Below, in pieces: positions 25,327-48,615 of a DNA stretch of 64,000 bases. The translations under genes were made by a program, and so were the position numbers. The DNA lies in the NCBI GenBank assembly GCA_963806325.1, contig CAWDXL010000002.1, positions 64,250 through 128,249 of the forward strand, in the 5' to 3' direction. Position 1 is the first letter of the stretch, and each line of letters starts with the position of its first letter. Source of the DNA: Candidatus Parcubacteria bacterium (lineage in GTDB: Bacteria; Patescibacteriota; Minisyncoccia; Phycocordibacterales; JAKAEA01). A model generated the notes under the pieces. That model did not search any database. It had not been told where the DNA came from and was given only the letters and a program-made list of their open reading frames with translations.

Positions 25327-25398
25327 GGCCTCATCGTCTAACGGTTAGGACAGAAGCTTCTCAAGCTTTAAATCGGGGTTCGATTCCCCGTGAGGTCA
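25327..25398 (+). tRNA. tRNA-Glu (CTC)
   Basis: A manual cloverleaf fits: acceptor GGCCTCA/TGAGGTC, anticodon loop TTCTCAA, T arm GGGGTTCGATTCCCC. Confidence 0.85.
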
Positions 25399-25531
25399 CA
25401 AGCAAGGTCGATGCGGAGGCATCATATTTTGAGCCGTTATTTCCGTCTCAAAAATCGAGCACCCCCTCCGGGTCTCGAACCACATAAGTTTTTATATTGT
25501 AACTATTACTAATTGTTGCTAGTATTCTTCC

Positions 25532-26097: not shown

Positions 26098-27957
26098 ATG
26101 AAACTTACCAAATTCAGAATTAAAAATTATAAATCAATCATTGATTCGGGTGATTGTTATTTCAGCGATAAATTAACAATTCTCGCTGGCAAGAATGAAT
26201 CAGGAAAGACGTCCGTTTTGGAAGCACTCGAAGATTTTCATCAAGAAAAAACTATACGGCAGGAGGCTAAACCTATAGATGGCGAAGGTGTTCCTGAAGT
26301 ATCGATCACTTTTACTCTTGGTAATTCAGAGACGAATGAAATCCTTAAAACAATTGTTAGTGACAAAACCGTAACAAAAGATATACCTATTACGCTGGTT
26401 AAGAAATTTGGAGTTGCTACATATACCCTCGATTCAGAATCGCGCAAGCAAATTAATCTACCAAATATCCACGAGGTGTCTAAAAAACAGATTTTAGAAT
26501 CTGTTAAGAAAATCGAAGCTTTTATTAAAACGTCTGGCAAGAGCGTAAAATTTCCAGCTACAACACTAGAAAAACAAAAGCTCAGCGATTACAAAACAGA
26601 AGTGGTAACATTCAAGTCTCAAATTCCTGACCTTCCGGATGCAATTACGGAAACAGCTAATATAGAAAAAGCGTCAGATGATTACTATGCTCGGGAAAAA
26701 CTTGTTGCAAATTTTATTGCAGAGTTTGTAAAATCACATTTACCATACTTCGTTCTCTTCTCATCTTTTGATGATGAGTTTCCAAAATCGATTCCCATTG
26801 CTTCACTTACTACAAGCGAATGGGCAAAAGACCTCGAGCAGGTGAGTAACTTTTCCATTGCAAAAATGGCATCGACTAACCAACAAGAGCAGGTAAACCA
26901 CGAGAATTCTGTAAACGTTGATTTCACGAGCAAATTCGACAAGTATTGGACTCAAGATAAAATAAAACTACGGGTCAAAAAAGATGGAACTGACATAAAT
27001 TTTTGGATTGTTGAAAACGAAAAAATGTATTATCCTTCGCAACGAAGCAAGGGTCAGCAGTGGTACCTCTCGTTTTATATTAAAATTGTCGCCAGACTTC
27101 AGGAAGACAAGCCAAATATTATATTGATTGATGAACCAGGACTGTATTTACACGCGAAAGCACAGAAAGATCTTTTAACGGTCTTGTTGGAACATACAAA
27201 CGATAATCCGGTTATTTTCTCTACTCATTCTCCATATCTTATAACTGAAGATAATCTTGAGAACGTAAGACTCATTGAGAAAACCGACATCGGTACGAAA
27301 ATCCTTGGAAAAATACACGCCCACCCGACAGCGGACAAGGAGACTCTCACGCCTATTCTTACGGCAATCGGTCTTGGTATCAACGACTCGATTACAAATC
27401 TTGACCAGAAGGATAATATTGTCGTCGAGGGCCCTGAGGACGTCTTCTATCTCGGCGCCTTTAAGGAGCTTGAAAAGAAAGATCTTAAGATCAATTTTAT
27501 AAATGGAGGTGGAGCTTCCAACATGGGGCTTGTGGGAGCAATTCTTGAGGGCTGGGGTGCGAACGTCCATTACCTATATGATAACGATCAAGGGAAAAAA
27601 GACGGTGAAAAGAATTTAAAAGCTTGGAGAATTCTGCCGGAAGCGATAAAGACCGTTCTTAAAAAAGACGGAGCAACCATAGTCGACATTTTTAGCCCTG
27701 AAGATTTTAGGAAGTTTGTTTTAGAAGATTCAAAACTGACTTACACGTTGTCAAACTCCGAATACATAAAAAGTCTTAAACCTAAACCGGATAAGGTTCT
27801 ACTTGCGAGGAAGTTTTTACAGAAAGCAAAAGTCAGCCCCGTTATTTTGAGCAAAGGAACAAAACAAAACATCGAGGCATTATTCACGGAAATTAATTTC
27901 AAAGACGAGGAAACTAAAGACAAAATTCAGAGCAGGGGGTATTCCACAGCAAACTAA
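26098..27957 (+). CDS. OLD-family ATP-dependent nuclease (ABC-type ATPase plus C-terminal Toprim)
   Basis: Walker A GKNESGKTS, QRSKGQQW, Walker B IILIDEPGLYLH, STHSPYLI. The Toprim domain has IVVEGPEDVFYL and YLYDNDQG. Confidence 0.85.
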   Translation: MKLTKFRIKNYKSIIDSGDCYFSDKLTILAGKNESGKTSVLEALEDFHQEKTIRQEAKPIDGEGVPEVSITFTLGNSETNEILKTIVSDKTVTKDIPITLVKKFGVATYTLDSESRKQINLPNIHEVSKKQILESVKKIEAFIKTSGKSVKFPATTLEKQKLSDYKTEVVTFKSQIPDLPDAITETANIEKASDDYYAREKLVANFIAEFVKSHLPYFVLFSSFDDEFPKSIPIASLTTSEWAKDLEQVSNFSIAKMASTNQQEQVNHENSVNVDFTSKFDKYWTQDKIKLRVKKDGTDINFWIVENEKMYYPSQRSKGQQWYLSFYIKIVARLQEDKPNIILIDEPGLYLHAKAQKDLLTVLLEHTNDNPVIFSTHSPYLITEDNLENVRLIEKTDIGTKILGKIHAHPTADKETLTPILTAIGLGINDSITNLDQKDNIVVEGPEDVFYLGAFKELEKKDLKINFINGGGASNMGLVGAILEGWGANVHYLYDNDQGKKDGEKNLKAWRILPEAIKTVLKKDGATIVDIFSPEDFRKFVLEDSKLTYTLSNSEYIKSLKPKPDKVLLARKFLQKAKVSPVILSKGTKQNIEALFTEINFKDEETKDKIQSRGYSTAN

Positions 27958-28012: not shown

Positions 28013-29335
28013 TTATCCCACCACCAACCTCCTATCCTTCATCACCACTCCACTCTTGATGCACGACAGCATCTCCCGCTTCTCAAACGTACTGCCTTCC
28101 TTGAGCAGGTATTTAGCATAATTTTTGATATCGAGTTCCTTTTTTTGCACGGATATGTCCTTCTCACCAAGCACGCCAGTCTGGAATTTTGAGTACCGCT
28201 CAACCTCTTTCGCTAGTCTCTCCCTGATCGTGGTTTTGTCGAGATTGATGCTGTCGATCAATTCCAGGGCTAATTCTATGAGGTCACCCTCTTTGAGCGG
28301 TGGATTTGTACACTCCTTGTCTCGGCTCTTGGTACACCTGTAGTATACATGCCGGTTTTGACCACCATCTTTGAGTTTCTTGAACTGTTCCTCAGCAGTA
28401 ATGCCCGAGCCGCAGTATCCACAGTGCATGATCTTGGTGAAGGCGAACTCTATACCATGCATTCGTCCCTGCTCGGTGTATAAATGCTCTTGCACTTTGT
28501 CGAATAACTCTTTGGATATGATAGGGGAGTGTTTGCCTGTGTACCAGTTGCCGCTGCCAGTGGGATATTCAAAGACACCGTAGTAGAAGGTGAATCGCAG
28601 GAGGCGGTAGATGTTACCGAGGCTCAGAGGCCTATCATTCTTTGACATAAATTTCACATCATCCTTGAGCCATTTAAACAATCGTCTGCCAGACCACTGC
28701 TCATATGCCACCTTCTCAAACATCTGCTTAATGATAGGTGCACGCTTTGGATCAACCATGACTTCGCACTTCTTGTCAGTTCGTTTTTCGTTCAGGTATC
28801 CCGTTGGTGCGATACACGGCCAGAGTCCCATCTCGACCCTCGTCTTCAAACCACGCTTCACGTTGATGCTCTTATTATCATTTTCCAACTTGGCCTGACT
28901 TCCTAAAATCATCAGCAAGAATTTTTCGTTAGGGTTGTTTGTAAATTTTTGACTATACGTTCGTATCTCAACAAGCACTTTCTGATCCATGAGATCAACA
29001 AGTGCGCCAAGGTCTCCGGCATTTCTACTTAATCTATCAGGATGCCAGCAGAGGATACCGTTAAATTTGCCGGCACGCATATCCACCAATAGTTGGTTAA
29101 AAATTGGTCGTTGACCATTGGCTTTTGCCGAGTGCGACTCACGCCTCGTCTCAGCGATATCAAGGCCATTTTTCTCAGCCAAGCTCAGCATTTCTTTTAC
29201 CTGCGACTCTATGGATAGTGCCTGCATCTCATCCTGCTCCGTACTCTTGCGTGCATAGAGGCAGTAGCGTACTGCCACTCGTTTTTCCTCTACGTAGTTC
29301 TCTAAAATTCTCCCTACGGCTAGTGTTGGTTCCAT
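28013..29335 (-). CDS. Large serine recombinase
   Basis: YARKSTEQDEMQALSIESQ, PDRLSRN, a recombinase domain and a Cys-rich zinc ribbon (CGYCGSGI...YYRC). Confidence 0.9.
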   Translation of the reverse strand: MEPTLAVGRILENYVEEKRVAVRYCLYARKSTEQDEMQALSIESQVKEMLSLAEKNGLDIAETRRESHSAKANGQRPIFNQLLVDMRAGKFNGILCWHPDRLSRNAGDLGALVDLMDQKVLVEIRTYSQKFTNNPNEKFLLMILGSQAKLENDNKSINVKRGLKTRVEMGLWPCIAPTGYLNEKRTDKKCEVMVDPKRAPIIKQMFEKVAYEQWSGRRLFKWLKDDVKFMSKNDRPLSLGNIYRLLRFTFYYGVFEYPTGSGNWYTGKHSPIISKELFDKVQEHLYTEQGRMHGIEFAFTKIMHCGYCGSGITAEEQFKKLKDGGQNRHVYYRCTKSRDKECTNPPLKEGDLIELALELIDSINLDKTTIRERLAKEVERYSKFQTGVLGEKDISVQKKELDIKNYAKYLLKEGSTFEKREMLSCIKSGVVMKDRRLVVG

Positions 29336-29483: not shown

Positions 29484-31009
29484 ATGGCTTCAGACATAAA
29501 ACAACTTGAGAGCAAATTATGGGAAGCGGCCAATCATCTCCGTGCCAACTCCTCTTTGCGTCTCAATGAGTTTGCTGAACCTGTTCTTGGGCTTATTTTC
29601 TTGAAATTTGCTGATGTTAAATTCAATACCGCAAAAAATGAAATTGAGGCTGAACGAGGGCAAACAAGCTCAAAACGTCAACGATCCGTAACAGCCGAAG
29701 ATTTTCAGTCTCGTGGAGTTCTCTATATTCCAGAAAGTGCACGCTTTTCTTCCTCATTTCTCTTCCAGAAGGAACTGATATGGGGAAAGCAGTAAACGAT
29801 GCAATGAAAGAAATCGAATCAGATAATAAAGAGTTGTCTGGTATTTTACCAAAAAATTATAACCTTCTCGATAATCCTGCGATCATCACGCTTCTCAAAA
29901 ACCTCAATCATATTCCCGATAGTATTGAAGGTGATGCATTCGGGCTCATCTATGAATATTTCCTCGGCAAATTTGCAATAGCAGACGGTTCAGGTGGTGG
30001 TGAATTTTTTACTCCAACCTCTATCGTAAAATTGATTGTTGAAATTCTAGAGCCTTATCAAGGAAAAATTTACGATCCTGCTTGTGGCTCAGGAGGTATG
30101 TTCGTACAGTCTCTAGAATTTATCAAGCGTCACCTTGAAAATGGAAAGAAAGCAAAAGCATCACGTGAAATTTCTATTTACGGGCAAGAAAAAACTGACC
30201 AGACAGTTCGAATTGCAAAAATGAACTTAGCAATTCATGGACTCTCGGGTGATATTAGGCAAGGCAATACCTACTATGAGGATCTGCACCGCTCACTTGG
30301 TAAGTTTGATTTCGCAATGGCAAATCCACCATTCAACGTAGACGGTATCGATAAAGAGCGTATAAAAGATGATCCACGATTTTCTTATGGTCTACCACGT
30401 ACAGATAATGGTAACTACCTTTGGATACAAATATTTCTTAATGCACTCAAAGACGGAGGACGTGCTGGATTCGTTATGGCAAATTCGGTAAGTGATGCTG
30501 GACATAGCGAAAAAGACATTCGCCAGAAACTTATAGATGATGGGCTTGTTGATGTCATGATTTTAGTTGGCCCAAACATGTTCTATAACGTTACACTTCC
30601 CGTAACGCTCTGGTTTCTAGATAAAGGGAAAAGGAAAACTGATCGAAAAGATAAAATACTTTTTATTGATGCCCGCAATATTTACAAACAAATTGATCGT
30701 GCACACCGTGAGTGGACAAATGAACAAATAGAGCAGATTGCTGAAATTGTTCGTAGTTATCGTGGAGAAAAAGGATCCCAAAAGTATGCGGATATAAAGG
30801 GGCTCTGTAGAATAGCAACGCTTGATGAGGTGGTAAAAGAAGGATACTCACTCAATCCTGGTAGATATGTTGGCACCATTGAATTAACCCAATCTGACGA
30901 GGATTTTGAAAGTACAGTCAAAGCACTTTATGGTGAATTTTCAAAATTGACAGATGAAGCACACGATATTGAGAAGAAAATTGAGAGTAACTTTAAGAAA
31001 TTTTTTTAG
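29484..31009 (+). CDS. hsdM: Type I R-M methyltransferase subunit HsdM; frameshift near 29750
   Basis: The N-terminal HsdM_N segment (LESKLWEAANHLR), DPACGSGGMF and the NPPF motif are spread over two frames. Confidence 0.9.
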
Positions 31010-31010
31010 T

Positions 31011-32249
31011 ATGACCAATCAAACTCTTATAAAATGGAATAGCAAGAAATTGTCCGATATCTCTGATCACATAACAGTTGGTTTTGTTGGTTCAATGTCA
31101 TCACTTTTTACAGACAAAAGGGTTTTTCTTCCTTATTGAGAGGTCAAAATATTGAACCCTACCGCTTAAATCTAAGGAATATTAAACATATTTCTTTCGA
31201 AACTCATAACAAATGGAAAAAGTCATCTCTGATAGCTGGAGACGTGGCAATTGTTAGGGTTGGTTATCCTGGAACAGCTTGTGTTGTCCCGAAAGGGTTG
31301 GGGGATATAAATGCTGCCAGTTTGGTGATAGTCAGGCCAAATTCGAAACTATTAAATTCACACTGGTTAGAATTGGTCCTTAATTCTCCATGGGGAAAGT
31401 CTGCCGTTCAAAGTCGTTTAGTAGGTGCTGCACAGCAGGTATTTAACACCAAAACGGCCGCGGAATTAGAAATTCCATATCCTGATCAAAGTTCAAGACC
31501 AAATTGTTGATGTTATATATTCGTACAATAAGCTAATTGAAAATAATAATTACAGAATAAAAATTCTTGAAGACATTTCTCAAAAAATCTACACAGAGTG
31601 GTTTGTGAATTTTCGTTTTCCTGGATACGAGAAGGTAGAATTTAGTAAAGATGGTTTACCTGATGGATGGAGTAAAATGGTGTTGGATGATTGCATTTCT
31701 ATATACAGAGGTAAGTCATACTCAAGTGAAGATTTGATTGAAACTGAAAGTGGTATTCCTTTTGTTAATCTAGAATGTATAAAAAGATTTGGGGGATTCA
31801 GGAAGGATGGAATAAAGTCTTTTTCTGGCAAGTACAAAGAATTTCATAAAGTTAGTAAAGGTGACATTGTTATGGCTGTCACGGATATGACGCCAAAGAA
31901 TGATAGTTGCAAGATCGGCACGAATTCCGTACTATCGGGTGTTGATTTCGGTGTTATATCAATGGATTTAGTAAAAATTGAACCAAAGAATAATTGTGAG
32001 AAGGACTTTCTGTACTCATATTTCCGATGGTCAGATTTTTCAGATAATGTTAAAAATTACGCAAATGGAGCAAACGTGTTACATCTTACTCCTGACCGAG
32101 TAACTGATTATAAATTTGTATGTCCTCCAAAAAATTTACAAAAAGAGTTTTCTGATTTTGTTAAAAATCTATTTGAAGAAATAGATAACATTGAACTTTC
32201 TAACAATAATTTGAGTAAATTTCGTGACTTGCTTATACCGCAATTGTAA
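31011..32249 (+). CDS. hsdS: Type I R-M specificity subunit HsdS; frameshifts near 31130 and 31480
   Basis: Two TRD-like halves are separated by the conserved spacer QDQIVDVIYSYNKLIENNNYRIKILEDISQKIYTEWF. The pieces lie in three frames. Confidence 0.75.
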
Positions 32250-32275: not shown

Positions 32276-35200
32276 ATGAACGAATTTTCTGAAGACAATT
32301 TAATTGAACAAACGGCCGTCAAAATATTTAGTGAGCTTTGGGGTGCAAAGAATTTTATCAATGCCTATTCCGAAGAAGGTGATGCTCCACTTGGTCGTGA
32401 TAATCAAGGTCAAGTTGTTTTGGTAAATCAACTTAAACCAGCACTTGAAAAACTTAACCAGATGTCCACAAGAAGCTATCACTCAAGCGATTAAGGAACT
32501 TACTAAAGATCGCTCGTCGATGAGTTTGGTTAATGCAAACGCGGAGAGATATAAACTCATTAAAGATGGAGTAAAAGTTGAGGTCAAGGATGAACGAGGA
32601 GCGATAGAAACAATAAATATAAAAGTTGTTGATTTCACTGATACCTACTAAAAATGATTTTCTTTTGGTATCACAAATGTGGATTACTGGAGACTTGCAC
32701 AAACGCCGTCCTGACCTGATCGGGTTCGTGAATGGTCTACCTCTTGTATTAATAGAACTGAAAGCCTCGCATAAAAATCTACGCAATGCTTATCAGGAAA
32801 ATATTCGGGATTACAAAGACACTATTCCCTCAACTTTTCTGGCATAACGCTTTTATTATCATTTCAAATGGCATTGAGAGTAAGGTTGGCACACTCACTT
32901 CTGCATACGAACATTTCAATGAATGGAAGAAAATTAAAGATGAGAGTGAGGAAGGTGGTGTTAGTTTAGAGACTGTCCTCAAGGGGACATGCGAACAGTC
33001 CCGCCTTTTAGATATAGTTGAAAACTTCACTTTGTTTGACGGCTCTCGTGGAGAACTCACCAAGATTGTTTCTCGGTATTTCCAATTCCTAGGAGTAAAT
33101 CGAGCTTTTGATCGCATTGAACACCGTGACGAGAATGGCGGCCGACTCGGTGTCTTCTGGCATACACAAGGTTCAGGTAAGTCATACTCAATGCTTTTCT
33201 TGTCTCAAAAAGTCTTTAGAAAACTACACGGCAACTTTACGTTTATTTTAGTGACTGATCGTAAAGAGCTCGACAAACAAATTTACAAAAACTTTGTTGA
33301 CTGTGGAGCAGAAACGAAAAAAGAGGTTCATGCTGAATCAGTACAAGAGCTACGTGATTTACTAGCTGAGGATCATCGCCATGTCTTCACACTCATTCAG
33401 AAATTTAATGAGCCGATTGAGCTTAACAAGCGTAGCGACATTATTGTTATGGCAGACGAAGCTCATCGCACACAGTATGATACATTCGCAAAAAATCTCC
33501 GTATAGCACTTCCGAACGCCGCTTTCATTGGCTTTACAGGTACACCGCTCATGGCAGAGGGCGAGGAGAAAACCCGATCTACATTTGGAGACTATGTTTC
33601 GACGTACAACTTTGCTCAATCAGTAGAGGACGGTGCAACTGTACCTCTCTACTACGAAAATCGCGTACCCAAACTAGAGAATGCAAACCCAGAGATTCAA
33701 AAGGATCTTGAGAAAGTTATGGACTACTACGACCTTGCTACCGAGGAGGAAGACAAACTTGAACAAGAATTTTCAACGTTCTATCACCTTATTTCCCGTG
33801 AAGATCGTTTGAATAAAGTCGCAGAAGATATCGTAACTCACTTTACGGCTCGAGGTTATGACGGCAAGGCGATGGTGGTGTCAATTGATAAAAAGACAGC
33901 CATTCGCATGTACGTAAAAGTGAAAGAGCAAATGCAACGCTACATAGCGAAACTAAATATTGCGGTATCAAAAGCAAAGGACGATCACGAGAAGGAGGCT
34001 ATACGAGAACAGATACACAAGTACGAAGACATTGATATGGCAGTCGTCGTGAGTCAAAGTCAAAATGAAATTGCTGACATGGAGGAATTTGAGATTGATA
34101 TGCGACCAATTCGTGCACGCATCTTGGACGAAGATCTCGAAACGAAATTCAAGGATCCGACTGATAATCTTAAAATTGTCTTTGTTTGCGCAATGTGGAT
34201 GACGGGTTTTGATGTACCAAATCTCTCAACTCTCTATCTCGATAAACCTCTTAAAAATCATACACTGATGCAGACAATTGCTCGTGCCAATCGTGTCTAT
34301 CCAGGTAAGACAAACGGACTTATCGTGGACTATGTCGGAGTATTCCGTAATCTGCAGAAAGCACTTGCTATCTATGCAATAACAAAAGATGGCTCTGGCG
34401 ATATTATTCAAGACAAAGATGAGCTTGTAGAAATTCTATTTTCTAAGGTTGCAGAAACACGAAAATTCCTGAAGTCGCTTGAGCTAAATATCAACGAATT
34501 ATTGGAAGCAAAGGATATTGAGAAAATACGACTTGTTGATGTATTTACAAATCGTATTCTTGCTGATGAGCAGACAAAACAGAGATACCTAGAACTTGCG
34601 GGTAATGCGTATACATACTACAAAGCAGTTTTGCCAGAACCAAAAGCTGAAGACTATTATCATGAGGTCACTGCGTATAAAGTAATAGCATCTCGTATTC
34701 GTGAAGTTGTCGACGAAGACACCGACGTATCGCAAGTGAAGAAAGACCTCGAAGATCTTCTCGATCGCTCTATTCGAGCTGGTGAGTATGTCATTAAAGA
34801 TACGCCAAAAATCAAAGACCTTAGCAAGATTGATTTTCAAGCATTGAGAAAGTTTTTTGATGATTCAGATACAAAAAATATTGAGGCGGAACAACTCAGT
34901 GCTGAACTAGAGGAAAAGATAAAAGAAATGGTGAAGAAGAACAAACTCCGTAAGCGATTTCTCGATAGGTTGAATATACTTTTGAGTGAGTACAATTCTG
35001 GCTCGCATGATCTTGATGCTTTTTTCAATCAATTAGTTGAACTAGCTAAAGAGTTGAGCGAAGAAGATCGTCGTGCTATTTCGGAGAATCTGACAGAGGA
35101 AGAATTGGCCGTTTTCGATCTTCTAAGAAAAGACGATCTAAATCCAGATGAAACCGACCAAGTAAAGAAGGTTGCCAAAGAACTCGTCACAAAACTCAAA

Positions 35201-35395
35201 CTAGAAAAACTGGCTCTAGATTGGAAGAAGAAGGAAGAGACTAGAGCGGATGTAAAAGTTACTATTCGTGATATTTTGTATGATAATCTTCCAGAGCCCA
35301 CATATTCACAATTTGACTGCGAGGATCGAACTCAGAAGGTTTATTTGCATGTCTACGATAGTTACATTGATGGAAAAATTAATGTTTATATATAG
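32276..35395 (+). CDS. hsdR: Type I R-M restriction subunit HsdR; three frameshifts (about 32460, 32640, 32830)
   Basis: The N-terminal nuclease region (PDLIGFVNGLPLVLIELK), Walker A HTQGSGKS and the DEAH box (MADEAHRTQ). Four consecutive ORFs step through the frames. Confidence 0.9.
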
Positions 35396-36341: not shown

Positions 36342-36452
36342 TTGGTGAGCTGTTGGTAACTCGACTACACAAATTTTCCAATCTAAGCTAAGGTGCATGG
36401 ACTAATACAATAGGCCATTGTATTATGTGAACACAGCTGAATAAGTAGTTAA

Positions 36453-36609
36453 GTAGCCTAAATCTCACAAATCCTTGTGGGGCATGGTGAAAGTATCCGC
36501 AAAAGCATAAAAAACTCCTCGTCAGAGTTGCTTTTGCGGTCATACTGGGAAACTGGTATGGGTGGTCTTCGGATCATCAGTCTGGCGGGGAGCTTTTTGT
36601 TTCCGCTAC
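36453..36609 (+). ncRNA. Unclassified structured RNA motif, copy 1 (5' leader of the 36631 gene)
   Basis: P1 is GUAGC/GCUAC (36453-57 / 36605-09). A receptor-like CCUAAA...CAUGG pair brackets hairpin 36465-80. There is an 11-bp helix 36497-507/36529-39 with an A-rich bulge, a GAAA hairpin at 36543-58 and a UUCG hairpin at 36563-76. The helices covary with copy 2. Confidence 0.6.
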
Positions 36610-36630
36610 ATTATCAAAACCGCAAAAGTT

Positions 36631-38403
36631 ATGAAAAACAAACTAATAGCATCACTGGCAGTTCTTGTGTTTTTTGCCACATGTTCAGTAGCTCATGCAG
36701 CAGGTGTTTTCAATAGCGATCTCAGCTATGGGATGACAGATAATCTCGGTGTTCAAGCACTACAAACGTTTCTCACTAAGCAAGGCTTATATTCTGGTCC
36801 GATATCAGGAAACTTCTTTACTTTGACCCAAGCTGGAGTTAAAAAATATCAGACATCAGTCGGCTTGCCCTCCACTGGTTTCGTCGGTCCTTTAACCAGA
36901 GTTCATATCAATACTGATCTTGCGGCCCAACCTACTTCTTCAACTCAAAACGAGATTGCTGAGACAGGTATGTCCACTCCATCTGCCGTTTGCACAGGTG
37001 GAGCATTGTTCAATAAACTTACAGGCCAATCATGTAATCAATACGTACCTGTTAGTACCGGTCCATGCACTAGTAATGCTGTGTACAACTCCCAGACAGG
37101 AGCGTTGTGTAGTACTAATCCAGCTCCTATTACTCAACCGACACCTGTGCAGAGTAATCCTACATCTCCATCACCCAATTCTAATTATTCCTCCTACACT
37201 CCTGTCACGTTCTCTCAATATCAAAACGATTCCACCGCATATATCGGTGACGATGTCATAGTGACTGGTATGAACGATTCATTCATACCAAGCACGGGGA
37301 ATGTCGGCAGTACCAATTATGTCGAGGTTGAAAATCCTTTTGATCTTACTCAGCCGAAAATCGAATTAAAAGTAGATGATCCTACCGCCTATGCCGCAAT
37401 CGTTAATGCCCTCCAAGACAAAAGCCAGCCAACTCATCTTTTCTTGCGAGCATATGGCGTCGCGGTACCAAGTCAGCAATTTACTTCGAACAATGCCTTT
37501 CGCTCAGCCACAATTCAAGTGCCGGTCTTAGACGCATCAAGGGTTGACCAATGTTTACAGGGTTCCATGAGTGGTACTGTACTTATTGGTACGAGTTTCG
37601 AGAGTAATTTCTCCTGCTCTTCGTGGTCAACGATTGTGCCGTTGTCACTGACCGGTACCGTCTGGACTACTCCGACCCCACCGTTGATTCCTGTTACTCC
37701 AGTCACTCCAGTACCACCAACAACACCATCTCCAACACTCAATTCGGACGCGACACTCAAGAGCCTTACGGTTAACGGAACATCCGTAACAGGATTCAGT
37801 CCGACTACCTACGCATACACTGTCACATTACCGGCAGGATCGGCATCAGCTCCAACCGTATCAGTTGTTACAAATGACACAAATGCAACAGAAGTAATTA
37901 CCCAAGCATCAGACTCGCTTGGCAGTGCGACAGTGGTGGTAACAGCCCAGAACGGTACAACTCGGAACACGTATACTCTTAATTTTAAACCTTCTGACGC
38001 CGGACAATGTAATGTCGGTGGGAACATCTTCACATGTGCATCAAACTCAGGCATAACCCTCAGCCCGACCTCTCTGCCAGCTGCCACGGTCGGCAGTCCA
38101 TATACCCAGCCAGTTATTGTATCCGATCCGGATACATCGTCTGAGAATTTCAGGTGGAATATCATCTCCGGTTCACTTCCTCCGGGTTTGGGTTTGGCGT
38201 TCTCTTCTTCTCAGGCGATTGAATGTTCTGGCAGTTATTGTTTCTTTACAACCCCGAATATATCGGTTCCATCCAATAGCCCCGGAATGTTCTTCGGAAC
38301 ACCGACAACCGCCGGAACCTACAGCTTCACGCTTCAGGCAATTGATAGTCTGAATTACACAGCTCTCCCGACGTTTACCATCACGGTTGTTAGTTCGACA
38401 TAG
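36631..38403 (+). CDS. Secreted protein: signal peptide, PG-binding-like domain, cadherin-like beta-sandwich, Ig-like repeat
   Basis: MKNKLIASLAVLVFFATCSVAHA signal peptide, LQTFLTKQGLYSGPISGNF...GFVGPLT, SDATLKSLTVNG...YTVTLP and GSLPPGLGL. The track start at 36562 would run into the RNA motif. Confidence 0.7.
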   Translation: MKNKLIASLAVLVFFATCSVAHAAGVFNSDLSYGMTDNLGVQALQTFLTKQGLYSGPISGNFFTLTQAGVKKYQTSVGLPSTGFVGPLTRVHINTDLAAQPTSSTQNEIAETGMSTPSAVCTGGALFNKLTGQSCNQYVPVSTGPCTSNAVYNSQTGALCSTNPAPITQPTPVQSNPTSPSPNSNYSSYTPVTFSQYQNDSTAYIGDDVIVTGMNDSFIPSTGNVGSTNYVEVENPFDLTQPKIELKVDDPTAYAAIVNALQDKSQPTHLFLRAYGVAVPSQQFTSNNAFRSATIQVPVLDASRVDQCLQGSMSGTVLIGTSFESNFSCSSWSTIVPLSLTGTVWTTPTPPLIPVTPVTPVPPTTPSPTLNSDATLKSLTVNGTSVTGFSPTTYAYTVTLPAGSASAPTVSVVTNDTNATEVITQASDSLGSATVVVTAQNGTTRNTYTLNFKPSDAGQCNVGGNIFTCASNSGITLSPTSLPAATVGSPYTQPVIVSDPDTSSENFRWNIISGSLPPGLGLAFSSSQAIECSGSYCFFTTPNISVPSNSPGMFFGTPTTAGTYSFTLQAIDSLNYTALPTFTITVVSST

Positions 38404-38432: not shown

Positions 38433-39457
38433 ATGGAAACAACTACAAAGAAGTGTCCGTACTGCCAAAAAGAAATTGATGCCAATGCCAGAAAGTGTCC
38501 ATTTTGCCAATCAGACCTCAGAGGCTGGACGAGCCGTCATCCTCTTGTAACAATCATTCTGGCCCTTATCGGAATATTCATTGTCACGTCTATTGTTGGT
38601 GCAATTATTAATGGTTCAAATAGCACTAGTGGCATTTCAGCGCCTACTGCAGCAACTGATACCCAGGCTCAATCAGTTTGTCCGGCTGACCTTGTTACAT
38701 TCAAGACCCAGACTCAAACAGTAGATTACAAAAAGTTAGAAAAAGACCCTAATAGTTTCACAGGACAAAAAGCACAATTCACTGGCCAGATTCTTCAAAT
38801 ACAAGAATCTGGCGGCAACACCGTGATACGTCTTGCTGTCACTAAGACCGACTATGGCTGGGATCCTAATAATGTCGTGTGGGTAGACTATCAAGGCACT
38901 ACTGATGCAGTTCAAGATGATGTTGTTACAGTATATGGTGTACTCGCTGGTTCATACACCTACACATCTGAAGCAAATTACAGCATCGCGCTTCCAAGTA
39001 TTACCGCATGCGTGATTGATGAGGGTGCACCAAAGAAAGCTGTTACCACAACAACTAAGGCCGCATCAACGCCTTTGGTCACTTCTCGGCCTCAAGCACC
39101 TGTTGCGCCACAACCAGTAGCTCAACCAGTCGTACAAGCAACTCCTAAAACGTGGCACACCGCGTATACCTACACCGGAAATACATCTATTCAGACACCG
39201 CCATTCTCATTGTCTGGCGATGAGACAAGAAAATTACCTACACCTGTTCGATAACTGATCCAACTAATACATATGGAGGAACTTTTAACGGTATATTATC
39301 AGCTGCGCAAGGGTATGGAGGAGGTCCATTTGCAGAAGTAGTAACCTGCCCAACGAGTAATACTTCATATGAGTATTCGCAAACGCCGGGACAGTATTAT
39401 CTCAGCCTTGATTCTGTAAATGCTGCGTACACTGTTACGGTAGAGGATTACTACTAG
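38433..39457 (+). CDS. Zinc-ribbon/TM-anchored extracellular protein; frameshift near 39225
   Basis: KKCPYCQKEIDANARKCPFCQS, then a TM, then beta-rich domains. The C-terminus ITYTCSITDPTNTYGG...QYYLSLDSVNAAYTVTVEDYY* is in another frame. Confidence 0.6.
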
Positions 39458-41293: not shown

Positions 41294-41720
41294 TGTTTTT
41301 ATTGATTATGTCTAAATATGGCTCGACTAATTTTTGCGTCTCGGGCTTGAGCTGACCGAATGCCTCGAAATACAAATTTTCCTGATCATCCTGAGCGATA
41401 GCTAATCCCGATTGGAACATTTTCTGCTTATAGTCAGGATGTTTGTACTTAAGCCAAAATATAATGGCCGTCAGGTTGCCAGCCTTAATAGCAGAGATGA
41501 GCTGAGATTCAGCAGCATCGCAGACGAAGGCGGTGCCATCAGCAAGCGCAGCATCAGCGGCTTTCGAGAATTCTGGATCTTCATTGCGCCAGCGGTAGTA
41601 GGTAGCGCGGGCGACAGCTACTTTCTGACAGGCGACTTCTACAATTGGTGTTTGCTTAAATTGTGTGATGAGCAGGTCTTTATTTGTCTGGGTTTTGTTC
41701 ATATAGTTTAATTGCTTCAA
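41271..41720 (-). CDS. Terminase small subunit-like HTH protein
   Basis: VARATYYRWRNEDPEFSKA...AIIFWLKYKHPDY, positioned immediately upstream of terL. Confidence 0.55.
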   Translation of the reverse strand: MKQLNYMNKTQTNKDLLITQFKQTPIVEVACQKVAVARATYYRWRNEDPEFSKAADAALADGTAFVCDAAESQLISAIKAGNLTAIIFWLKYKHPDYKQKMFQSGLAIAQDDQENLYFEAFGQLKPETQKLVEPYLDIINKNNGEQRKI

Positions 41721-42474
41721 TTCCTGTTAAATCTTCAAACTGTTCGAGTATTGACCGCACGTAGTCAGCATCAAGTTCGATACCGATGCAGATTCTCTTT
41801 GTCTGTTCGCACGCGAAAAGTGTTGTGCCGGAGCCGAGAAAGCCGTCAAACACCACGTCTCCGATGCGCGTACTGTTTAATACCAGCCGACGGATGAGCC
41901 CAATCGGTTTTGTTGTAGGATGGCGCGGGCTTTTCTGGGGCTTCGGATGGACGATAACGCTTTTGTCGTTTGATTTCAGAAATTCATGGACGCCGTACCA
42001 GCCATAGGCGATGAGTTCATGCTGGGGCGCATAGTCCATACGGCCAATAACGGCACTCGTTTTGACCCATATGAGCAGCTGTCCGAATTTCATTCCAGCC
42101 TGGAGCATGCCGTCATGCAGCGCGAAAATCATCCGATCGCTGTTGAAGATATAGAAGGCATTCTTGCGCTCAAGGTGCGGTTTCAGCGCCTCGATCCAGC
42201 CGCAGGTAAAGGCGGTGTATTCCACATCGCTCTGAAGATGGTCATTGGCAATAGCTTTATTTTTCTTTAGTGTCTGAAAACCTTCCTTGCTTTCGGCCAC
42301 CGCTATGCCGTAGGGCACATCAGCAATGACCGCTTTAATTTTATTTGCCCCGACAAGCTTTTTGACGAGATCTGTATCTCGGCAATCACCAAGCGCAAGG
42401 AAGTGATTCCCGAGTTTAAAGATATCTCCGTAGCTAATTGATCTTTCTTGCTTTTTTATTGGTGAGTTTTTCAT
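41680..42474 (-). CDS. DNA N4/N6 methyltransferase (beta class)
   Basis: Motif IV-like IADVPYG comes before motif I VFDGFLGSGTT. Confidence 0.8.
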   Translation of the reverse strand: MKNSPIKKQERSISYGDIFKLGNHFLALGDCRDTDLVKKLVGANKIKAVIADVPYGIAVAESKEGFQTLKKNKAIANDHLQSDVEYTAFTCGWIEALKPHLERKNAFYIFNSDRMIFALHDGMLQAGMKFGQLLIWVKTSAVIGRMDYAPQHELIAYGWYGVHEFLKSNDKSVIVHPKPQKSPRHPTTKPIGLIRRLVLNSTRIGDVVFDGFLGSGTTLFACEQTKRICIGIELDADYVRSILEQFEDLTGIEAIKLYEQNPDK

Positions 42475-43711
42475 ATCGATTAATGATGAGCTGACAGAAG
42501 ACCGGTTCGATTTCTGCGAGTCGTGATTGGCGCTTTAGGGCTTCGCAAGCGACTAACAGGCTGCCACTTCCAGCCGTTAAATCTAAAATAATGTCTCCCG
42601 GCTTGCTGCAGCGCCGGATGGATTTTTCGTAGAGCGTCGGGGGCTTCATGGTGCTATGTTCATATTGATTACCGGGTAGCCGTTGTACGAGCCATATGTG
42701 GAAAATGTCCATGATGTCGTCGATCAGCCGATTGCCACTACCAATTTCTTTGTTCTGAAATTCACTCAGATTTTTTATTTTGTCCGACAAAAAGGGATGT
42801 CCTTTTAAACCATACATACACAACTCGACCGCCCGATTGAAAGCAATTTGAGGCGTTGGGTTGTGCGATCCTTTACACCACATACAGAGCCTCTTGAAAT
42901 GTATATCAAGCTCTTTGTATATTTCTTGCAGCAGACCGATATATTTTTCATCGAGCCATGAGAAGATATGGCAGTCATCCTTGCTAACTGATAGGGCGTT
43001 GCGTAGAATACTTGTGAGAAACTTCCGATACTCGGCGTCTGATTTTTTGTCATTGATCGTTCCACCATAATTTTGTTTTCCGCCGAGGCCTTTGGAATAG
43101 TCCACGCCTATGTTGTATGGAAAATCAATGTTTATGAGATCTATCTTTTCCTTGCCGACAAGCCTTTTAACCGTATTAGGATCAGTACTATCGAAGCAAA
43201 TCAAACGGTGTATACCGAGCTGGAATAGATCACCTGATTTGATTGAGGTTGTCTTGGCTTTTTCCAATTCCTGTTCCTCGTTAATGCTGTCATCGATGAC
43301 TTCAAGGTTATCGTCGAAGATGTTACTCAAATCGGCTGAATCGAAGCCGGCGGTGAGAAGAAGATCGAGATCAAAATCTTGGCCTAAAATATCCCAATTA
43401 AATTCGCCGCCTGAGCGGTTACTCGTGAGCAAGTAGTCTTTAAATTCCTGGTCGGTTAATGTTCTGTTTGGAATTCTGACTTCGATTTCTTCTTCTCCGC
43501 GCCCGAGCAGCTGGAGTATTTTTATGCGTTGATGCCCGGCAATTATAGTGCCATCGGTATTAATGGCTGGCAGTTCGACGAGATTGAATTTCTTAAAGCT
43601 GCGCTTTAAGTCATCCACCTGCTTATCCGATATGACCCTTGGGTTTTTTGAATAGGGTAGCAGACTATTCACTTTGCGTTTTACCGTCCTCCAGTCTAAT
43701 TTTTTCGACAT
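42434..43711 (-). CDS. ParB-like nuclease domain fused to a DNA methyltransferase
   Basis: ParB-N (NPRVISDKQVDDLKRS...IIAGHQR), then motif IV-like IDFPYN and motif I ILDLTAGSGS. Confidence 0.8.
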   Translation of the reverse strand: MSKKLDWRTVKRKVNSLLPYSKNPRVISDKQVDDLKRSFKKFNLVELPAINTDGTIIAGHQRIKILQLLGRGEEEIEVRIPNRTLTDQEFKDYLLTSNRSGGEFNWDILGQDFDLDLLLTAGFDSADLSNIFDDNLEVIDDSINEEQELEKAKTTSIKSGDLFQLGIHRLICFDSTDPNTVKRLVGKEKIDLINIDFPYNIGVDYSKGLGGKQNYGGTINDKKSDAEYRKFLTSILRNALSVSKDDCHIFSWLDEKYIGLLQEIYKELDIHFKRLCMWCKGSHNPTPQIAFNRAVELCMYGLKGHPFLSDKIKNLSEFQNKEIGSGNRLIDDIMDIFHIWLVQRLPGNQYEHSTMKPPTLYEKSIRRCSKPGDIILDLTAGSGSLLVACEALKRQSRLAEIEPVFCQLIINRYEKLTNKKARKIN

Positions 43712-45044: not shown

Positions 45045-46673
45045 CTACATGGTGATGCGGAGGGGTTGTTTTGAGGCTAGCAAAATCGCTCGAAAAGGCT
45101 TACACTGATTGGTATTACTATGTTCGCGACCCGAGTCGCTCACCAAACGATTCTTTTCATCACCAAACTGCGATTTAACGTTGTAGATTGGGCATAATTC
45201 AAGAGTTTTAATAGCTGGATAAGTGTAAATGATATTTTGAGGGAAAAGCAGGGTTCTTAAAACTCTTAAATCTTTTACATCTAAGTCTTTCCAAGTTTCA
45301 GGAAGATGTTTTAGAAAATAAATACTTGAGTCAATGATATTATCTAATCCAAACTCGGGCGTGGAGAGATTATTCATTTCTTGTCTCAAGGCTTCGATTT
45401 GAAGTTTATACTTTTCATTGGCTGGTACAAAATCTTCATCTGATATTTTTCCCTCAATTCTTAAATCGAGCAACTTTTCCTTTTTGTCTTTTATTTCTGC
45501 GATATTAGCATTCAATTTTCTTTCGGATGATGTAACAGAACTTAGCTCAGTTTTGTGAGCCATTTTTATTGCTTCTTTAAGAATGTCAAAAAAATCGTCA
45601 TTAGGAGTAAGCTCTGCAAGAAATTTGGTAAAGTCTTTTTCCATATCAATTTTTGAGATGGCTTTTCTTTTTAGACAATCTTTATTGTAACATCCGTAAT
45701 ACTGGTAATATTTTTTAGTTTTACTCCTTGATGGTCCTCCAGACATATTTTTACCACATCCATCACATTTTATTCCGCGCAAAGGAAAGTTTGGATTATC
45801 CAGATTACGAGGATTCTTTCTACCAATATTTATGCCATGTCGCACATCTTGAGCCTGTCTGTATAATTTTTCACTGATAATTGGTTCGTGGGAACCCATC
45901 ACTGATACCTGAAACTTTAGAACTGTAATCATTCCGTAGTAGATTGGATTTGCGATTATTTTAGCTACGAGTTGTTTGCTAATCTTCAAACCATGCTTAC
46001 TTTTCATTCCCATTTTGTTTGCCATAATGGCTAGTTCCCTAAAGGTATATTTCCCAGTCACATAATTTTCATAGAGCATTTTCACCACCGGAGCTTTTTC
46101 AGGATGAGGAATAATTATTTTATTTCCTAACTTATCTGTAGTGTTTAGGTAACCCCAGGGGGCAACTCCACTCCATAACCCTTTTAATAACCTCGCTCTC
46201 ATGCCCTCGCTTGTTCTTATAGACCTAACATCATTATCAAGTTGAGCAACAGCCGAGAGGATCGTTTCATTGAATTTTCCAGAAGGTGTGTCTTCAAGAT
46301 TCTCAGTTGCAGATGCCAATGAGATTCCAAGTTTATTGAAGAATGCTCTTAAGCTGAGGTGGTTTGCAGTATTTCTTGCCAATCTATCAACCTTATAAAC
46401 TACAATTCTGTCAATATTTTTCTTGTTTCTTTCACAATACATCATCATCTGTTGAAGCTTTGTTCTGTCAGTAGTTTTGGCTGATTCTCCCTCCTCTCTG
46501 AAGGATTGAAGCACATTGTGTAAAGTTCTGTGAGAAAATTCCGTGCAAAATTTTTCTTGATTGTCTAAACTGAAATTAAAAGTTTGTTCTTGTGAGGATA
46601 CTCTATAGTAGTGAACATCATTTTTCGGCTTCTCACTTTTGTAACTAAAATTTTTCATGTTTTTTATGATCAA
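45045..46673 (-). CDS. Large serine recombinase (integrase type)
   Basis: YYRVSSQEQ...SLDNQ, VDRLARN, a recombinase domain and a zinc ribbon (CDGCGKNM...YYGC). Confidence 0.9.
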   Translation of the reverse strand: MIIKNMKNFSYKSEKPKNDVHYYRVSSQEQTFNFSLDNQEKFCTEFSHRTLHNVLQSFREEGESAKTTDRTKLQQMMMYCERNKKNIDRIVVYKVDRLARNTANHLSLRAFFNKLGISLASATENLEDTPSGKFNETILSAVAQLDNDVRSIRTSEGMRARLLKGLWSGVAPWGYLNTTDKLGNKIIIPHPEKAPVVKMLYENYVTGKYTFRELAIMANKMGMKSKHGLKISKQLVAKIIANPIYYGMITVLKFQVSVMGSHEPIISEKLYRQAQDVRHGINIGRKNPRNLDNPNFPLRGIKCDGCGKNMSGGPSRSKTKKYYQYYGCYNKDCLKRKAISKIDMEKDFTKFLAELTPNDDFFDILKEAIKMAHKTELSSVTSSERKLNANIAEIKDKKEKLLDLRIEGKISDEDFVPANEKYKLQIEALRQEMNNLSTPEFGLDNIIDSSIYFLKHLPETWKDLDVKDLRVLRTLLFPQNIIYTYPAIKTLELCPIYNVKSQFGDEKNRLVSDSGREHSNTNQCKPFRAILLASKQPLRITM

Positions 46674-47753: not shown

Positions 47754-47786
47754 TTAATTCAATTGCAAAATATGCAATTGAATTAA
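47754..47786. promoter_or_regulatory. Perfect 14-bp inverted repeat with a 5-nt spacer (candidate operator)
   Basis: ttaattcaattgca-aaata-tgcaattgaattaa, about 45 nt upstream of RNA motif copy 2. Confidence 0.45.
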
Positions 47787-47830: not shown

Positions 47831-47974
47831 GTAGCCTAAATCAGCAAGTCATTGCTGACATGGCGAAAAATCGCAGAGTACAGAAAACCCGATCATAAGG
47901 GCGTACTCTGCGTTGCTGGAGGAAACTTCAGTAGAGGCTTCGGCCTTCCTTGTGGTCGGATTTTTCGTGCCTAC
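47831..47974 (+). ncRNA. Unclassified structured RNA motif, copy 2 (5' leader of the 48004 gene)
   Basis: P1 is GUAG/CUAC. CCUAAA (47835-40) and CAUGG (47859-63) bracket hairpin 47843-56. There is a 10-bp helix 47872-81/47903-12 with an AGAAAA bulge, a GAAA hairpin at 47916-31 and a UUCG hairpin at 47934-47. Confidence 0.6.
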
Positions 47975-48003
47975 CACTAGGAGTTATTAATTAATAACCT
48001 AGT

Positions 48004-48615
48004 ATGGAAAACGCAACAGGCTCTCCTAAGAAAAAATGGTTCATGCGTCCAGCCGTTATATGGACGTTTGTAATATTAATATTGTTTGTAGTTGTCATGG
48101 TGAGTGGATTATTTTTGAACGGTAACAATAGTTCTACATCTCCCTCTATTGATACTCCAAACCAACAAGAAAATAGTCAGACGACTCCTTTTGCGACCAC
48201 GACAATAACAGACCTGATAAATAATCCACAGTCCGGTAGTCTCGTTCAGGTAACAGGAGTGATAGCGCAGAAAGGGGAATTTACATATTCAAACAATACG
48301 AGCTATTACCTAAAAATTACCAACGGCATAGACTCTACCTTGGTCCAATTATCTGATGGCAGTGGGACAACTCCTCCAAAATACGCACTCAACCAGTTCG
48401 TTGATGGTGAAACTATCTCTGTTCAAGCAGGGGAAGGAGAATTGGGTTCTTGTAGCGATACAGAGGATGGTGATGTCATCGGAAAGATGTGCACTTTGTT
48501 TGGTGTATGGAATCAAAAGAGTGTCCCTGTACTCATTCCCATTAACATTACTGTTGTTCAGAAGAATCCAACCTCGGTTACAAATGACTCTGTTTCTAGT
48601 GCTACAAAACAATGA
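48004..48615 (+). CDS. TM-anchored extracellular beta-rich protein
   Basis: 203 aa with one TM (VIWTFVILILFVVVMVSGLFL). Its architecture resembles the 38433 protein. Confidence 0.55.
   Translation: MENATGSPKKKWFMRPAVIWTFVILILFVVVMVSGLFLNGNNSSTSPSIDTPNQQENSQTTPFATTTITDLINNPQSGSLVQVTGVIAQKGEFTYSNNTSYYLKITNGIDSTLVQLSDGSGTTPPKYALNQFVDGETISVQAGEGELGSCSDTEDGDVIGKMCTLFGVWNQKSVPVLIPINITVVQKNPTSVTNDSVSSATKQ

Follow-up and report, generated by a model that had tools for sequence, protein, structure and literature searches.

Two LOOT RNAs of a parcubacterial chromosome: a covarying 3′ helix and a candidate leader switch upstream of genes for exported proteins

What might an RNA of an orphan family, one with a curated structure and no known function, be doing directly upstream of a gene for a secreted protein? 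The question is raised by two similar elements in a 64,000-nucleotide stretch of DNA from a Candidatus Parcubacteria bacterium (assembly GCA_963806325.1, contig CAWDXL010000002.1, positions 64,250 to 128,249 of the forward strand), which we call the window and whose positions are used throughout. Here, we assign both elements to the LOOT RNA family, describe a long-range helix that lies partly outside the family's annotated model, and consider whether the RNA acts as a switch in the leader of the gene that follows it.

A scan of the whole window against Rfam 15 with cmscan, at gathering thresholds, returned the LOOT family (RF03000) twice. Both matches are on the + strand and span the full model (positions 1-121 of 121). 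Copy 1 lies at 36455-36578 (76.3 bits, E = 1.4e-12) and copy 2 at 47833-47947 (71.0 bits, E = 2.4e-11), against a gathering score of 46.4 bits. With R1, a covariance model built from the relatives described below, the two score 86.9 and 78.1 bits. A pattern of conserved positions matches twice in the window where 0.00 matches are expected, and the RNAs folded from LOOT nucleotide 1 to a tract of five U residues (U5) have z-scores of -4.0 (copy 1) and -5.6 (copy 2) relative to dinucleotide shuffles. It is essentially certain that both elements belong to the known LOOT family, and their sequence features are far beyond chance. A search of the window with R1 found no copies beyond these two, and each related 8-kb locus holds one. 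An earlier reading of copy 1 from its letters (the sequence-only reading) had proposed a novel RNA, and had itself named a confident Rfam match as the result that would speak against this; the claim of novelty therefore fails.

What is known of the family is brief. Its source is a set of comparative-genomics alignments from Weinberg and Breaker. The original description reportedly derives the name from 'lots of tetraloops', and is said to have noted an 11-nucleotide tetraloop receptor and to have considered the RNA a likely small RNA (sRNA) without a classified host. Rfam types RF03000 as 'Gene; sRNA', and the model ends at the fourth hairpin, P4. The Rfam 14 paper lists LOOT as a 'metagenomic-based RNA' from the Weinberg alignments (PMC7779021), the Rfam 15 paper reports two covarying pairs added to it (PMC11701678), and the CaCoFold paper gives it about 43 base pairs in six helices. 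Our literature search found no paper that joins Patescibacteria, riboswitches and tetraloops; the papers it did find merely list the family.

Relatives were collected by searching the conserved-position pattern against one genome per GTDB species, where at least 118 loci matched. The family counts given below (74, 75 or 76 loci) are taken from among the matches listed, and the 76 instances are the related loci together with the two window copies. At least 74 distinct relatives have a 7-8-bp P3 around a GAAA loop. These score 60-119 bits with R1, and all 18 relatives submitted to Rfam passed its threshold, with 67-99 bits. Judged by record title, 48 of 75 LOOT-positive loci (one exact duplicate included) are labelled as Candidate Phyla Radiation (CPR) or Patescibacteria, 15 as unclassified 'bacterium', and 11 carry other labels. 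The CPR labels include Saccharibacteria, Parcubacteria/Paceibacterota, Taylor-, Staskawicz-, Doudna-, Roizman-, Magasanik-, Nomura-, Adler- and Yonathbacteria, and Microgenomates. The home of LOOT is mostly in CPR/Patescibacteria genomes, and some proteins of the window are 52-66% identical to proteins of CPR LOOT loci.

True LOOT copies also occur under labels outside the CPR (loci L030, L033, L039, L046, L052, L059, L069, L073, L086, L100 and L113), and these passed the Rfam threshold where tested. The labels are Gammaproteobacteria, Flavobacteriaceae, Rhizobiaceae, Bdellovibrionales, Pseudomonadales and, once, Omnitrophota; most are third-party bins, and one isolate name among them contains 'PATE'. 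Such labels may reflect errors of binning or annotation, or horizontal transfer. A phage origin was considered and rejected: 2.9 million viral contigs gave six pattern matches, all lacking P3 pairing and therefore chance matches, one of which reaches a marginal 26 bits with R1.

Each window copy has a core of four hairpins: P1 with a receptor-like internal loop, a long P2, a GAAA-capped P3 and a tetraloop-capped P4 (coordinates in Table 1). Copy 2 repeats the architecture of copy 1 with a compensatory change in every helix, and across 74 homologues such changes are found in 22 of 26 alifold pairs. In a 64-sequence alignment, P3 is paired in 96.3% of cells, with compensatory changes in 8/8 pairs, and the outer helix of P2 in 77.5%, with compensatory changes in 10/11 pairs. 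P4 is capped by UUCG in both window copies, and by GaAA in the family consensus. The positions of the CCUAAA/CAUGG internal loop are upper-case, that is highly conserved, in the Rfam consensus, and by its sequence this loop may function as a tetraloop receptor. The local inner hairpin of P2 was also tried as the main fold. In the collected set this stem of the Rfam model has just 3-4 bp; it was demoted to a minor alternative because only 65.5% of its cells are paired and only 3 of its pairs are good. Most of what had been read from the letters of copy 1 stands: the listed features are all in place, among them the receptor-like module, the GNRA and UUCG hairpins of a real structured RNA and the U5 tract at 36594-36598; the second copy and the covarying homologues exist, the downstream product is secreted, judging by its signal peptide, and the suggested length of about 157 nucleotides is close to the 145-165 that we find with the tail included.

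A further conserved part of the RNA lies beyond P4, outside the Rfam model. Nearly all loci continue there with 3-6 nucleotides, a G-rich 10-12-mer, one unpaired base and a U-rich tract, with at least 5 U in 8 nucleotides in 97% of loci. The G-rich tail can pair with the loop and 5′ strand of the hairpin at the apex of P2, and the U tract with the A-rich bulge that precedes this hairpin. In an alignment-free comparison, the duplex of apical P2 with its own tail has an average energy of -24.1 kcal/mol, as against -13.2 with the tails of other loci and -10.0 with shuffled tails (permutation p = 2e-4). Covariation was assessed over 13 core pairs in a MAFFT alignment of 64 loci. The helix is paired in 94.8% of cells, compared with 48-54% when the partner is slid by 1-3 columns; compensatory changes occur in 9/13 pairs and 103 cells, compared with 11-20 cells for slid partners; and 0/500 shuffles reach the observed values. 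The commonest type in the relatives pairs AAAGA-A-CCCAUCAUAU with AUGUGGUGGG-C-UUUUU, and copy 2 has compensatory changes relative both to copy 1 and to the family. At two positions a G-U wobble (UG) is fixed, in 48 and in 54 of the 64 sequences respectively, so the helix is specific to the + strand RNA and not a DNA palindrome. The true long-range helix is the one between the A-rich bulge with apical P2 and the tail with the U5 tract.

This helix appears to compete with the annotated fold. It starts 1-2 nucleotides after the outer P2 strand and occupies the whole of apical P2, so that a continuous helix of 13-18 bp would be sterically incompatible with a closed 11-bp outer helix. When the 64 RNAs, ending at the U tract, are folded under constraint into each of the two states, the median energy difference is -2 kcal/mol, and 48% of the RNAs lie within +/-3 kcal/mol. 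For both window copies cut at U5, the minimum-free-energy (MFE) fold contains the long-range helix. The centroid of copy 2 from nucleotide 1 to U5 has P2 closed, as in the LOOT fold, and the MFE fold of the full copy 1 leader is the LOOT fold, in which the tail and 36600-36607 make a small hairpin. When tails are paired with the sequence that follows the U tract, partners from one locus do better (-9.9 kcal/mol) than partners from different loci (-7.8 kcal/mol, p = 2e-4).

A further competition may take place at the start codon. Next to the ATG of copy 1 stands a 9-mer that copies the outer 5′ strand of P2 and can pair with the outer 3′ strand (36529-36539; duplex -14.9 kcal/mol). A locus-specific copy of the P2 5′ strand is found 2-10 nucleotides before the ATG in 12 of 76 loci (duplex <= -12 kcal/mol), against 1.2% of cross-locus pairs. 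The sequence-only reading had suspected an expression platform in the recurrence of this 9-mer, and these counts agree with it. Mutually exclusive conserved pairings, which characterize an expression platform, are seen here between the long-range helix and P2 (exclusive on the steric argument above), between the 3′ strand of P2 and the ATG-adjacent copy, and between the tail and the segment that follows the U tract. In the spacer of copy 2, the only GGAG is held within a 26-nucleotide palindrome, CTAGGAGTTATTAATTAATAACCTAG (47978-48003), which could be a hairpin that sequesters the ribosome-binding site or a binding site for a protein.

Where LOOT lies relative to genes is similarly constrained. 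The next open reading frame (ORF) of at least 80 amino acids within 300 nucleotides is on the same strand in 57 of the 76 instances and on the opposite strand in one; most of the remaining loci have shorter ORFs, which likewise start like signal peptides, or reach the end of a contig. The median gap from LOOT to the downstream ORF is 58 nucleotides, and the gap from core to ATG is about 50 in both window copies. In several loci, among them L090, L029 and L044, the ATG follows the U tract by only 11-14 nucleotides; a separate promoter would not fit into so short an interval, and the gene must therefore be transcribed through LOOT. An N-terminal hydrophobic segment, either a signal peptide or a membrane helix, is found in 44/57 of the downstream products (77%) and in 94/511 of the other ORFs of the same loci (18%; Fisher p = 4e-19). 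The products are otherwise diverse, with several PG_binding_1 proteins, a PMT-type glycosyltransferase, zinc-ribbon membrane proteins and many that have no Pfam family. In position, LOOT is where a riboswitch or other cis-acting leader is expected, 5′ of a gene on the same strand, and the two would share a transcript. A trans-acting sRNA has no fixed relation to its neighbour; LOOT keeps a fixed orientation and distance, with spacers that could not accommodate a second promoter. LOOT is probably a cis-acting leader of the downstream gene.

Both window copies fit this picture. The 590-residue product downstream of copy 1 begins with a Sec-type signal peptide, MKNKLIASLAVLVFFATCSVAHA, and homologues of this protein directly follow LOOT in L081 and L003. 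The second gene after copy 1 (38433-39254, +) encodes a zinc-ribbon protein with a membrane helix (KKCPYCQKEI...CPFCQSDL); homologues of it come first after LOOT in L092 and L100 (47-54% identity in the N-terminal part), and similar 'KCPYCAEEI' proteins follow LOOT in L042 and L094.

The transcript probably begins shortly upstream. In 75 related loci, a TAnnnT / TGnTATAAT box clusters 26-36 nucleotides upstream of LOOT nucleotide 1, and with a -10 box some 30 nucleotides upstream the core would begin about 20 nucleotides into the transcript. A motif conserved in the same 75 loci, ACAAYUGAAUAAG...AAGU at -22 to -1, fills the interval between the -10 box and nucleotide 1 of the Rfam model. Pairing of this 5′ leader with the core or tail was tested and rejected (own-locus -7.58 vs cross-locus -7.67, p = 0.68), and no partner for it was detected in the core, tail or spacer; the stretch may serve as the initially transcribed sequence or bind a protein. 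At the candidate site of copy 2 the consensus scan found no + strand promoter. Perfect inverted repeats also lie in these regions: TAATACAAT-aggcc-ATTGTATTA (36403-36425) overlaps the promoter-like site of copy 1, and TTCAATTGCA-aaata-TGCAATTGAA (47758-47782) is upstream of the candidate -10 box of copy 2. Such repeats, with arms of at least 7 bp and differing sequence, occur in 19% of related loci and in 4.5% of shuffles, mostly where a recombinase is adjacent. They may be operators or hairpins, and with this frequency are a subfamily trait and not a general feature of LOOT.

Table 1. Features of the two LOOT loci and of the surrounding genes, in window coordinates.
Feature	Coordinates	Strand	Basis or remark
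Copy 1 promoter-like site TGGACT-17-TATTAT	36398..36426 (-10 box 36421-36426)	+	consensus scan; putative promoter
Copy 1 putative 5′ leader ACAGCUGAAUAAGUAGUUAAGU	36433..36454	+	from a presumed transcription start ~7 nt after the -10 box
Copy 1 LOOT core	36455..36578	+	cmscan and covariance model R1
Copy 1 P1 module, CCUAAA (36457-36462) and CAUGG (36483-36487)	36457..36487	+	sequence reading
Copy 1 P1 hairpin, 7 bp, UCUCACA/UGUGGGG	36463-36469 / 36476-36482	+	between CCUAAA and CAUGG
Copy 1 P2	36497..36539	+	sequence reading and Rfam match
Copy 1 P2 outer helix, 11 bp, CCGCAAAAGCA / UGCUUUUGCGG	36497-36507 / 36529-36539	+	
Copy 1 P2 A-rich bulge UAAAAAA	36508-36514	+	
Copy 1 P2 apical hairpin ACUC-CUCGUCA-GAGU	36514-36528	+	
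Copy 1 P3, CAUACUGG-GAAA-CUGGUAUG	36541-36560	+	
Copy 1 P4, GGUGGUC-UUCG-GAUCAUC	36561-36578	+	
Copy 1 long-range helix, 5′ strand: AAAAA (36509-36513), unpaired A36514, CUCCUCGUCA(GA) (36515-36526)	36509..36526	+	
Copy 1 3′ tail: (UC)UGGCGGGGAG (36581-36592), C36593, UUUUU (36594-36598)	36581..36598	+	3′ strand of the helix
Copy 1 long-range pairing, AAAAA-A-CUCCUCGUCA with UGGCGGGGAG-C-UUUUU	36509-36524 / 36583-36598	+	
Copy 1 alternative local hairpin GGCGGGGA / UUUCCGCU, U5 in loop	36584..36607 (36584-36591 / 36600-36607)	+	full-leader MFE
Copy 1 9-mer CCGCAAAAG (36620-36628), then UU, ATG (36631-36633)	36620..36633	+	copy of P2 outer 5′ strand
Copy 1 downstream gene, 590 aa: signal peptide, PG_binding_1, weak cadherin-like match	36631..38403	+	
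Copy 2 candidate -10 box TACTGT	47801-47806	+	positional analogy with the family only; weak
Copy 2 putative 5′ leader ACAACCGAAUAUCGAAGAGU	47813-47832	+	positional analogy with the family only; weak
Copy 2 LOOT core	47833..47947	+	cmscan and covariance model R1
Copy 2 receptor-like CCUAAA / CAUGG	47835-47840 / 47859-47863	+	
Copy 2 P2 outer helix, CGCAGAGUAC / GUACUCUGCG	47872-47881 / 47903-47912	+	
Copy 2 P3, UGCUGGAG-GAAA-CUUCAGUA	47914-47933	+	
Copy 2 P4, GAGGC-UUCG-GCCUU	47934-47947	+	
Copy 2 long-range helix, 5′ strand: GAAAA (47883-47887), unpaired C47888, CCGAUCAUAA (47889-47898)	47883..47898	+	
Copy 2 3′ tail: UUGUGGUCGG (47950-47959), A47960, UUUUU (47961-47965)	47950..47965	+	
Copy 2 long-range pairing, GAAAA-C-CCGAUCAUAA with UUGUGGUCGG-A-UUUUU	47883-47898 / 47950-47965	+	
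Copy 2 alternative hairpin GUGGUCGG / CCUACCAC	47952..47977 (47952-47959 / 47970-47977)	+	sequence and full-leader MFE
Copy 2 near-perfect palindrome CUAGGAGUUAUUAAUUAAUAACCUAG	47978-48003	+	abuts ATG 48004-48006
Copy 2 downstream gene, 203 aa: N-terminal membrane helix PAVIWTFVILILFVVVMVSGLFL, no Pfam match	48004..48615	+	
tRNA-Glu	25327-25399		
OLD/PtuA-like AAA ATPase with TOPRIM domain	26098-27957		
Large serine recombinase	28013-29335	-	
Type I restriction-modification, hsdM	29780-31009		
Type I restriction-modification, hsdS	31605-32249		
Type I restriction-modification, hsdR	32786-35395		
Two N6_N4 DNA methylases	41680-42474, 42434-43711	-	
Second serine recombinase	45045-46673	-	
Resolvase/serine recombinase gene (resolvase fragment in the island order)	46809-47198	-	between second recombinase and copy 2
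DUF4145 protein	49611-50249		

How could these parts work together? We propose that the downstream mRNA has LOOT as its 5′ leader, acting in cis as a two-state switch. In one state, the LOOT fold, P2 would be closed and a compact shape held by docking of a GAAA tetraloop into the receptor. The tail would then be unpaired, or held in a small hairpin by the sequence downstream of the U tract; where a locus is of the copy 1 type, the start-codon region would be free as well. The gene would be on. In the other state the tail and U tract would zip up with the A tract and apical P2, giving an A tract, a stem of 13-18 bp and a U tract in the manner of an intrinsic terminator, and transcription would end prematurely at the U tract. 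Once released, the 3′ strand of P2 could in addition, in the copy 1 type, pair with the ATG-adjacent copy and block initiation. The outcome would be set by whatever stabilizes the tertiary LOOT fold, for which an ion, a small ligand, temperature or a protein are candidates. Termination, read-through and switching are all predicted from the pairings. We regard this scheme, in which the compact fold permits read-through and initiation and the long-range helix terminates and, in the copy 1 type, also occludes the start codon, as a tentative proposal with a little less than an even chance of being right. That LOOT is moreover a sensor is possible and rather doubtful: it would form a new class of riboswitch, or respond as a leader to ions or temperature, and would gate secreted and membrane proteins on serine-recombinase islands across the Patescibacteria, with docking deciding between read-through and termination. 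The platform in this reading would be an unusual one, in which an aptamer helix about 65 nucleotides upstream supplies, with its A-rich bulge and apical loop, the 5′ strand of the terminator; in some loci the choice would also be between an open and a blocked start codon.

Several observations weigh against the switch. It would be unusual for a terminator stem to enclose a loop of about 65 nucleotides with two hairpins in it. Relative to P2, the full long-range helix forms a pseudoknot, and its incompatibility with a closed P2 would follow from a steric argument and not from computation. The ATG-adjacent copy of the P2 strand is present in only about 16% of loci. In 29/74 loci, copy 2 included, the tail and the 3′ side of P4 can make a short, local hairpin that resembles a terminator, and the opposite logic is possible there, with the long-range pairing as an anti-terminator. 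In copy 2 this hairpin is closed by the tail with the P4 loop and 3′ strand (47939-47960; 7 pairs and an 8-nucleotide loop, then TTTTTCGTGC); near the tail of copy 1 no local terminator-like hairpin was found. The downstream genes share a cellular destination, secreted or membrane, and not a pathway, so that the gene context suggests no candidate ligand. The Rfam type of the family is that of an sRNA gene, and a homologue set drawn from a single sequence pattern may under-sample LOOT subtypes that lack those features.

The most serious rival is a leader that does not switch at all. LOOT could be a constitutive structure, such as a nuclease-resistant, cap-like fold at the 5′ end or a ribosome stand-by or translation-enhancing module on mRNAs whose Shine-Dalgarno sequence is weak or missing, with the tail and P2 in a permanent pseudoknot. 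This would suit an RNA that always lies near the inferred 5′ end of the transcript, that carries a tertiary-contact motif and stable tetraloops, that precedes genes without a coherent pathway, and whose spacers are mostly A/U-rich with no obvious Shine-Dalgarno sequence; moreover, an H-type pseudoknot could accommodate both P2 and the 8-bp core of the long-range helix. However, the complementarity covers the whole of apical P2, taking in both strands of the local hairpin and the A tract, which is too long to fit beside a closed outer helix, the two folds are near-isoenergetic, and both the tail and the P2 3′ strand have locus-specific alternative partners. We consider the constitutive leader unlikely, while giving it real weight. 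Less likely than this is a pure trans-acting sRNA, with its own promoter and its end at the U tract, to which the downstream gene is unrelated or merely adjacent. The Rfam type, the promoter-like box at a fixed upstream distance, the near-universal U-rich tract after a helix-forming tail and the local hairpin of the 29 loci would all be expected of an sRNA gene; the co-orientation of 57 to 1 at a short median gap, the U tracts that almost touch the ATG, the 12 loci whose start codon adjoins a locus-specific complement of the P2 3′ strand, the strong enrichment of signal-peptide and membrane proteins downstream and the lack of a local terminator hairpin in copy 1 would not.

Two further explanations have very little left to them. 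The conserved sequence might be a DNA-level feature of a mobile element, for example an attachment or binding site of the large serine recombinase nearby. Homologues of large serine recombinases (Resolvase + Recombinase + Zn_ribbon_recom) occur in 39/74 LOOT loci and in 0/44 control loci (p = 9e-11); homologues of the window's recombinase at 28013-29335 lie upstream and divergent in 31/37 matching loci, their start is 160-220 nucleotides from LOOT nucleotide 1 in 11 loci, and tRNA genes adjoin the recombinase in several loci and in the window. That said, half of the loci have no recombinase in the 8 kb examined, no true LOOT copy occurs in the 2.9 million viral contigs, tetraloops and receptor-like motifs are features of RNA, and the helices are kept by compensatory changes and by G-U wobbles, which would be C-A mismatches on the other strand. 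Because the covariation is strand-specific, a DNA-level site is largely refuted, and we hold it to be very improbable. Scarcely tenable is the model of the sequence-only reading, a new riboswitch-like RNA of about 157 nucleotides closed by a P1 helix GUAGC (36453-36457) / GCUAC (36605-36609). The overall length roughly fits, and the five-base-pair complementarity does exist in copy 1; its conservation does not, since in 73 loci the pairing of 5′ flank and spacer is no better within loci (-6.30 kcal/mol) than between them (-6.57 kcal/mol, permutation p = 0.87), and copy 2 has just GUAG/CUAC. GUAGC is part of the family's near-invariant AAGU-AGCC start, GCUAC overlaps the 3′ arm of the alternative tail hairpin, a segment more readily explained as a partner of the G-rich tail, and the family was already known. 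The reading that we favour, and hold to be somewhat more likely than not, is a known family that acts in cis as a leader with competing folds.

The window is bacterial chromosome, with divergent PBP2, FtsI-like, MurF, MurA and MurJ proteins that all fall below the NCBIfam equivalog cut-offs. The MurA homologue (7933-9327, -) has an extra N-terminal helix-turn-helix of ~85 residues, of which residues 25-79 match HipB/XRE-type antitoxin models; this is either a fusion of a kind unusual among cell-wall enzymes or the result of a wrongly assigned start codon. The region 25327-51500 (about 25.4-51 kb) looks like a genomic island adjoining tRNA-Glu, with a lower G+C content (0.36-0.40 in places). 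Its order is the ATPase, the recombinase, the type I restriction-modification genes, copy 1 with its gene, the methylases, the second recombinase with the resolvase fragment, copy 2 with its gene, and the DUF4145 protein. Among the related loci, LOOT is accompanied by a recombinase in L004, L019, L021, L025, L031, L038, L046, L055, L060, L115, L116 and others, and LOOT cassettes may be cargo of integrative islands. Near LOOT, tRNA genes often flank the recombinase, and homologues of the methylases lie 1.2-2.5 kb downstream of LOOT and convergent in L021, L025, L031, L037 and L057.

These results turn an orphan family into a testable regulatory system in CPR bacteria. The comparative data give it a home in the CPR/Patescibacteria, leader-like behaviour before genes for secreted and membrane proteins, and a strongly covarying 3′ extension in competition with the annotated fold. 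The possible novelty is a reinterpretation of the family, as a cis leader for exported proteins with a competing 3′ helix and a CPR home. The RF03000 model and type may deserve revision, with a 3′ pseudoknot or terminator arm and a cis-regulatory annotation. To our knowledge, very little is known of gene regulation in CPR bacteria, which live attached to host cells and rely on surface proteins. If the proposal is true, a widespread RNA switch before surface-protein genes on mobile islands would be an entry point into their regulation.

How does LOOT compare with known systems? Like an intrinsic terminator with an upstream A tract, it has the expected order of parts, from an A tract through a G+C-containing stem to a U tract. 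It differs in that its 'loop' is about 65 nucleotides, and a conventional hairpin abutting the U tract is seen in just the 29 of 74 loci noted above (copy 2 yes, copy 1 no), so the definition of a local intrinsic terminator fits only in part. The transcriptional ON riboswitches are another model. In the pbuE/ydhL adenine riboswitch, folding of the aptamer withholds the 5′ strand of the terminator. LOOT shares with this type a structured 5′ leader, a sensor helix part of which is also the 5′ strand of a helix ending in a U tract, and near-isoenergetic folds; in contrast, its competing helix encloses P3 and P4 and is pseudoknotted relative to P2, and the genes downstream share a destination, not a metabolic pathway. 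LOOT is not filed as a riboswitch because no ligand is known.

The receptor-like loop has a classical counterpart in the 11-nucleotide receptor for GAAA tetraloops, which occurs in group I and II introns and in RNase P, and which forms an AA platform and a U-A reverse Hoogsteen pair with the GAAA loop docked. The two agree at 9/11 positions (CCUAAA...CAUGG here, CCUAAG...UAUGG classically), and share an asymmetric internal loop inside a helix and GAAA hairpins elsewhere in the RNA. They differ at the last and first positions, A and C in LOOT and G and U in the classical form, where an A-C opposition would replace the G-U wobble. The closest comparison is with the RF03000 entry itself. The window copies share its four hairpins, its CCUAAA/CAUGG loop and the GAAA on P3; to these, they and at least 74 CPR-type relatives add a 5′ leader, a promoter-like box, a 3′ tail with a U tract and a co-oriented gene. 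The differences from the entry are additions to it, not conflicts with it.

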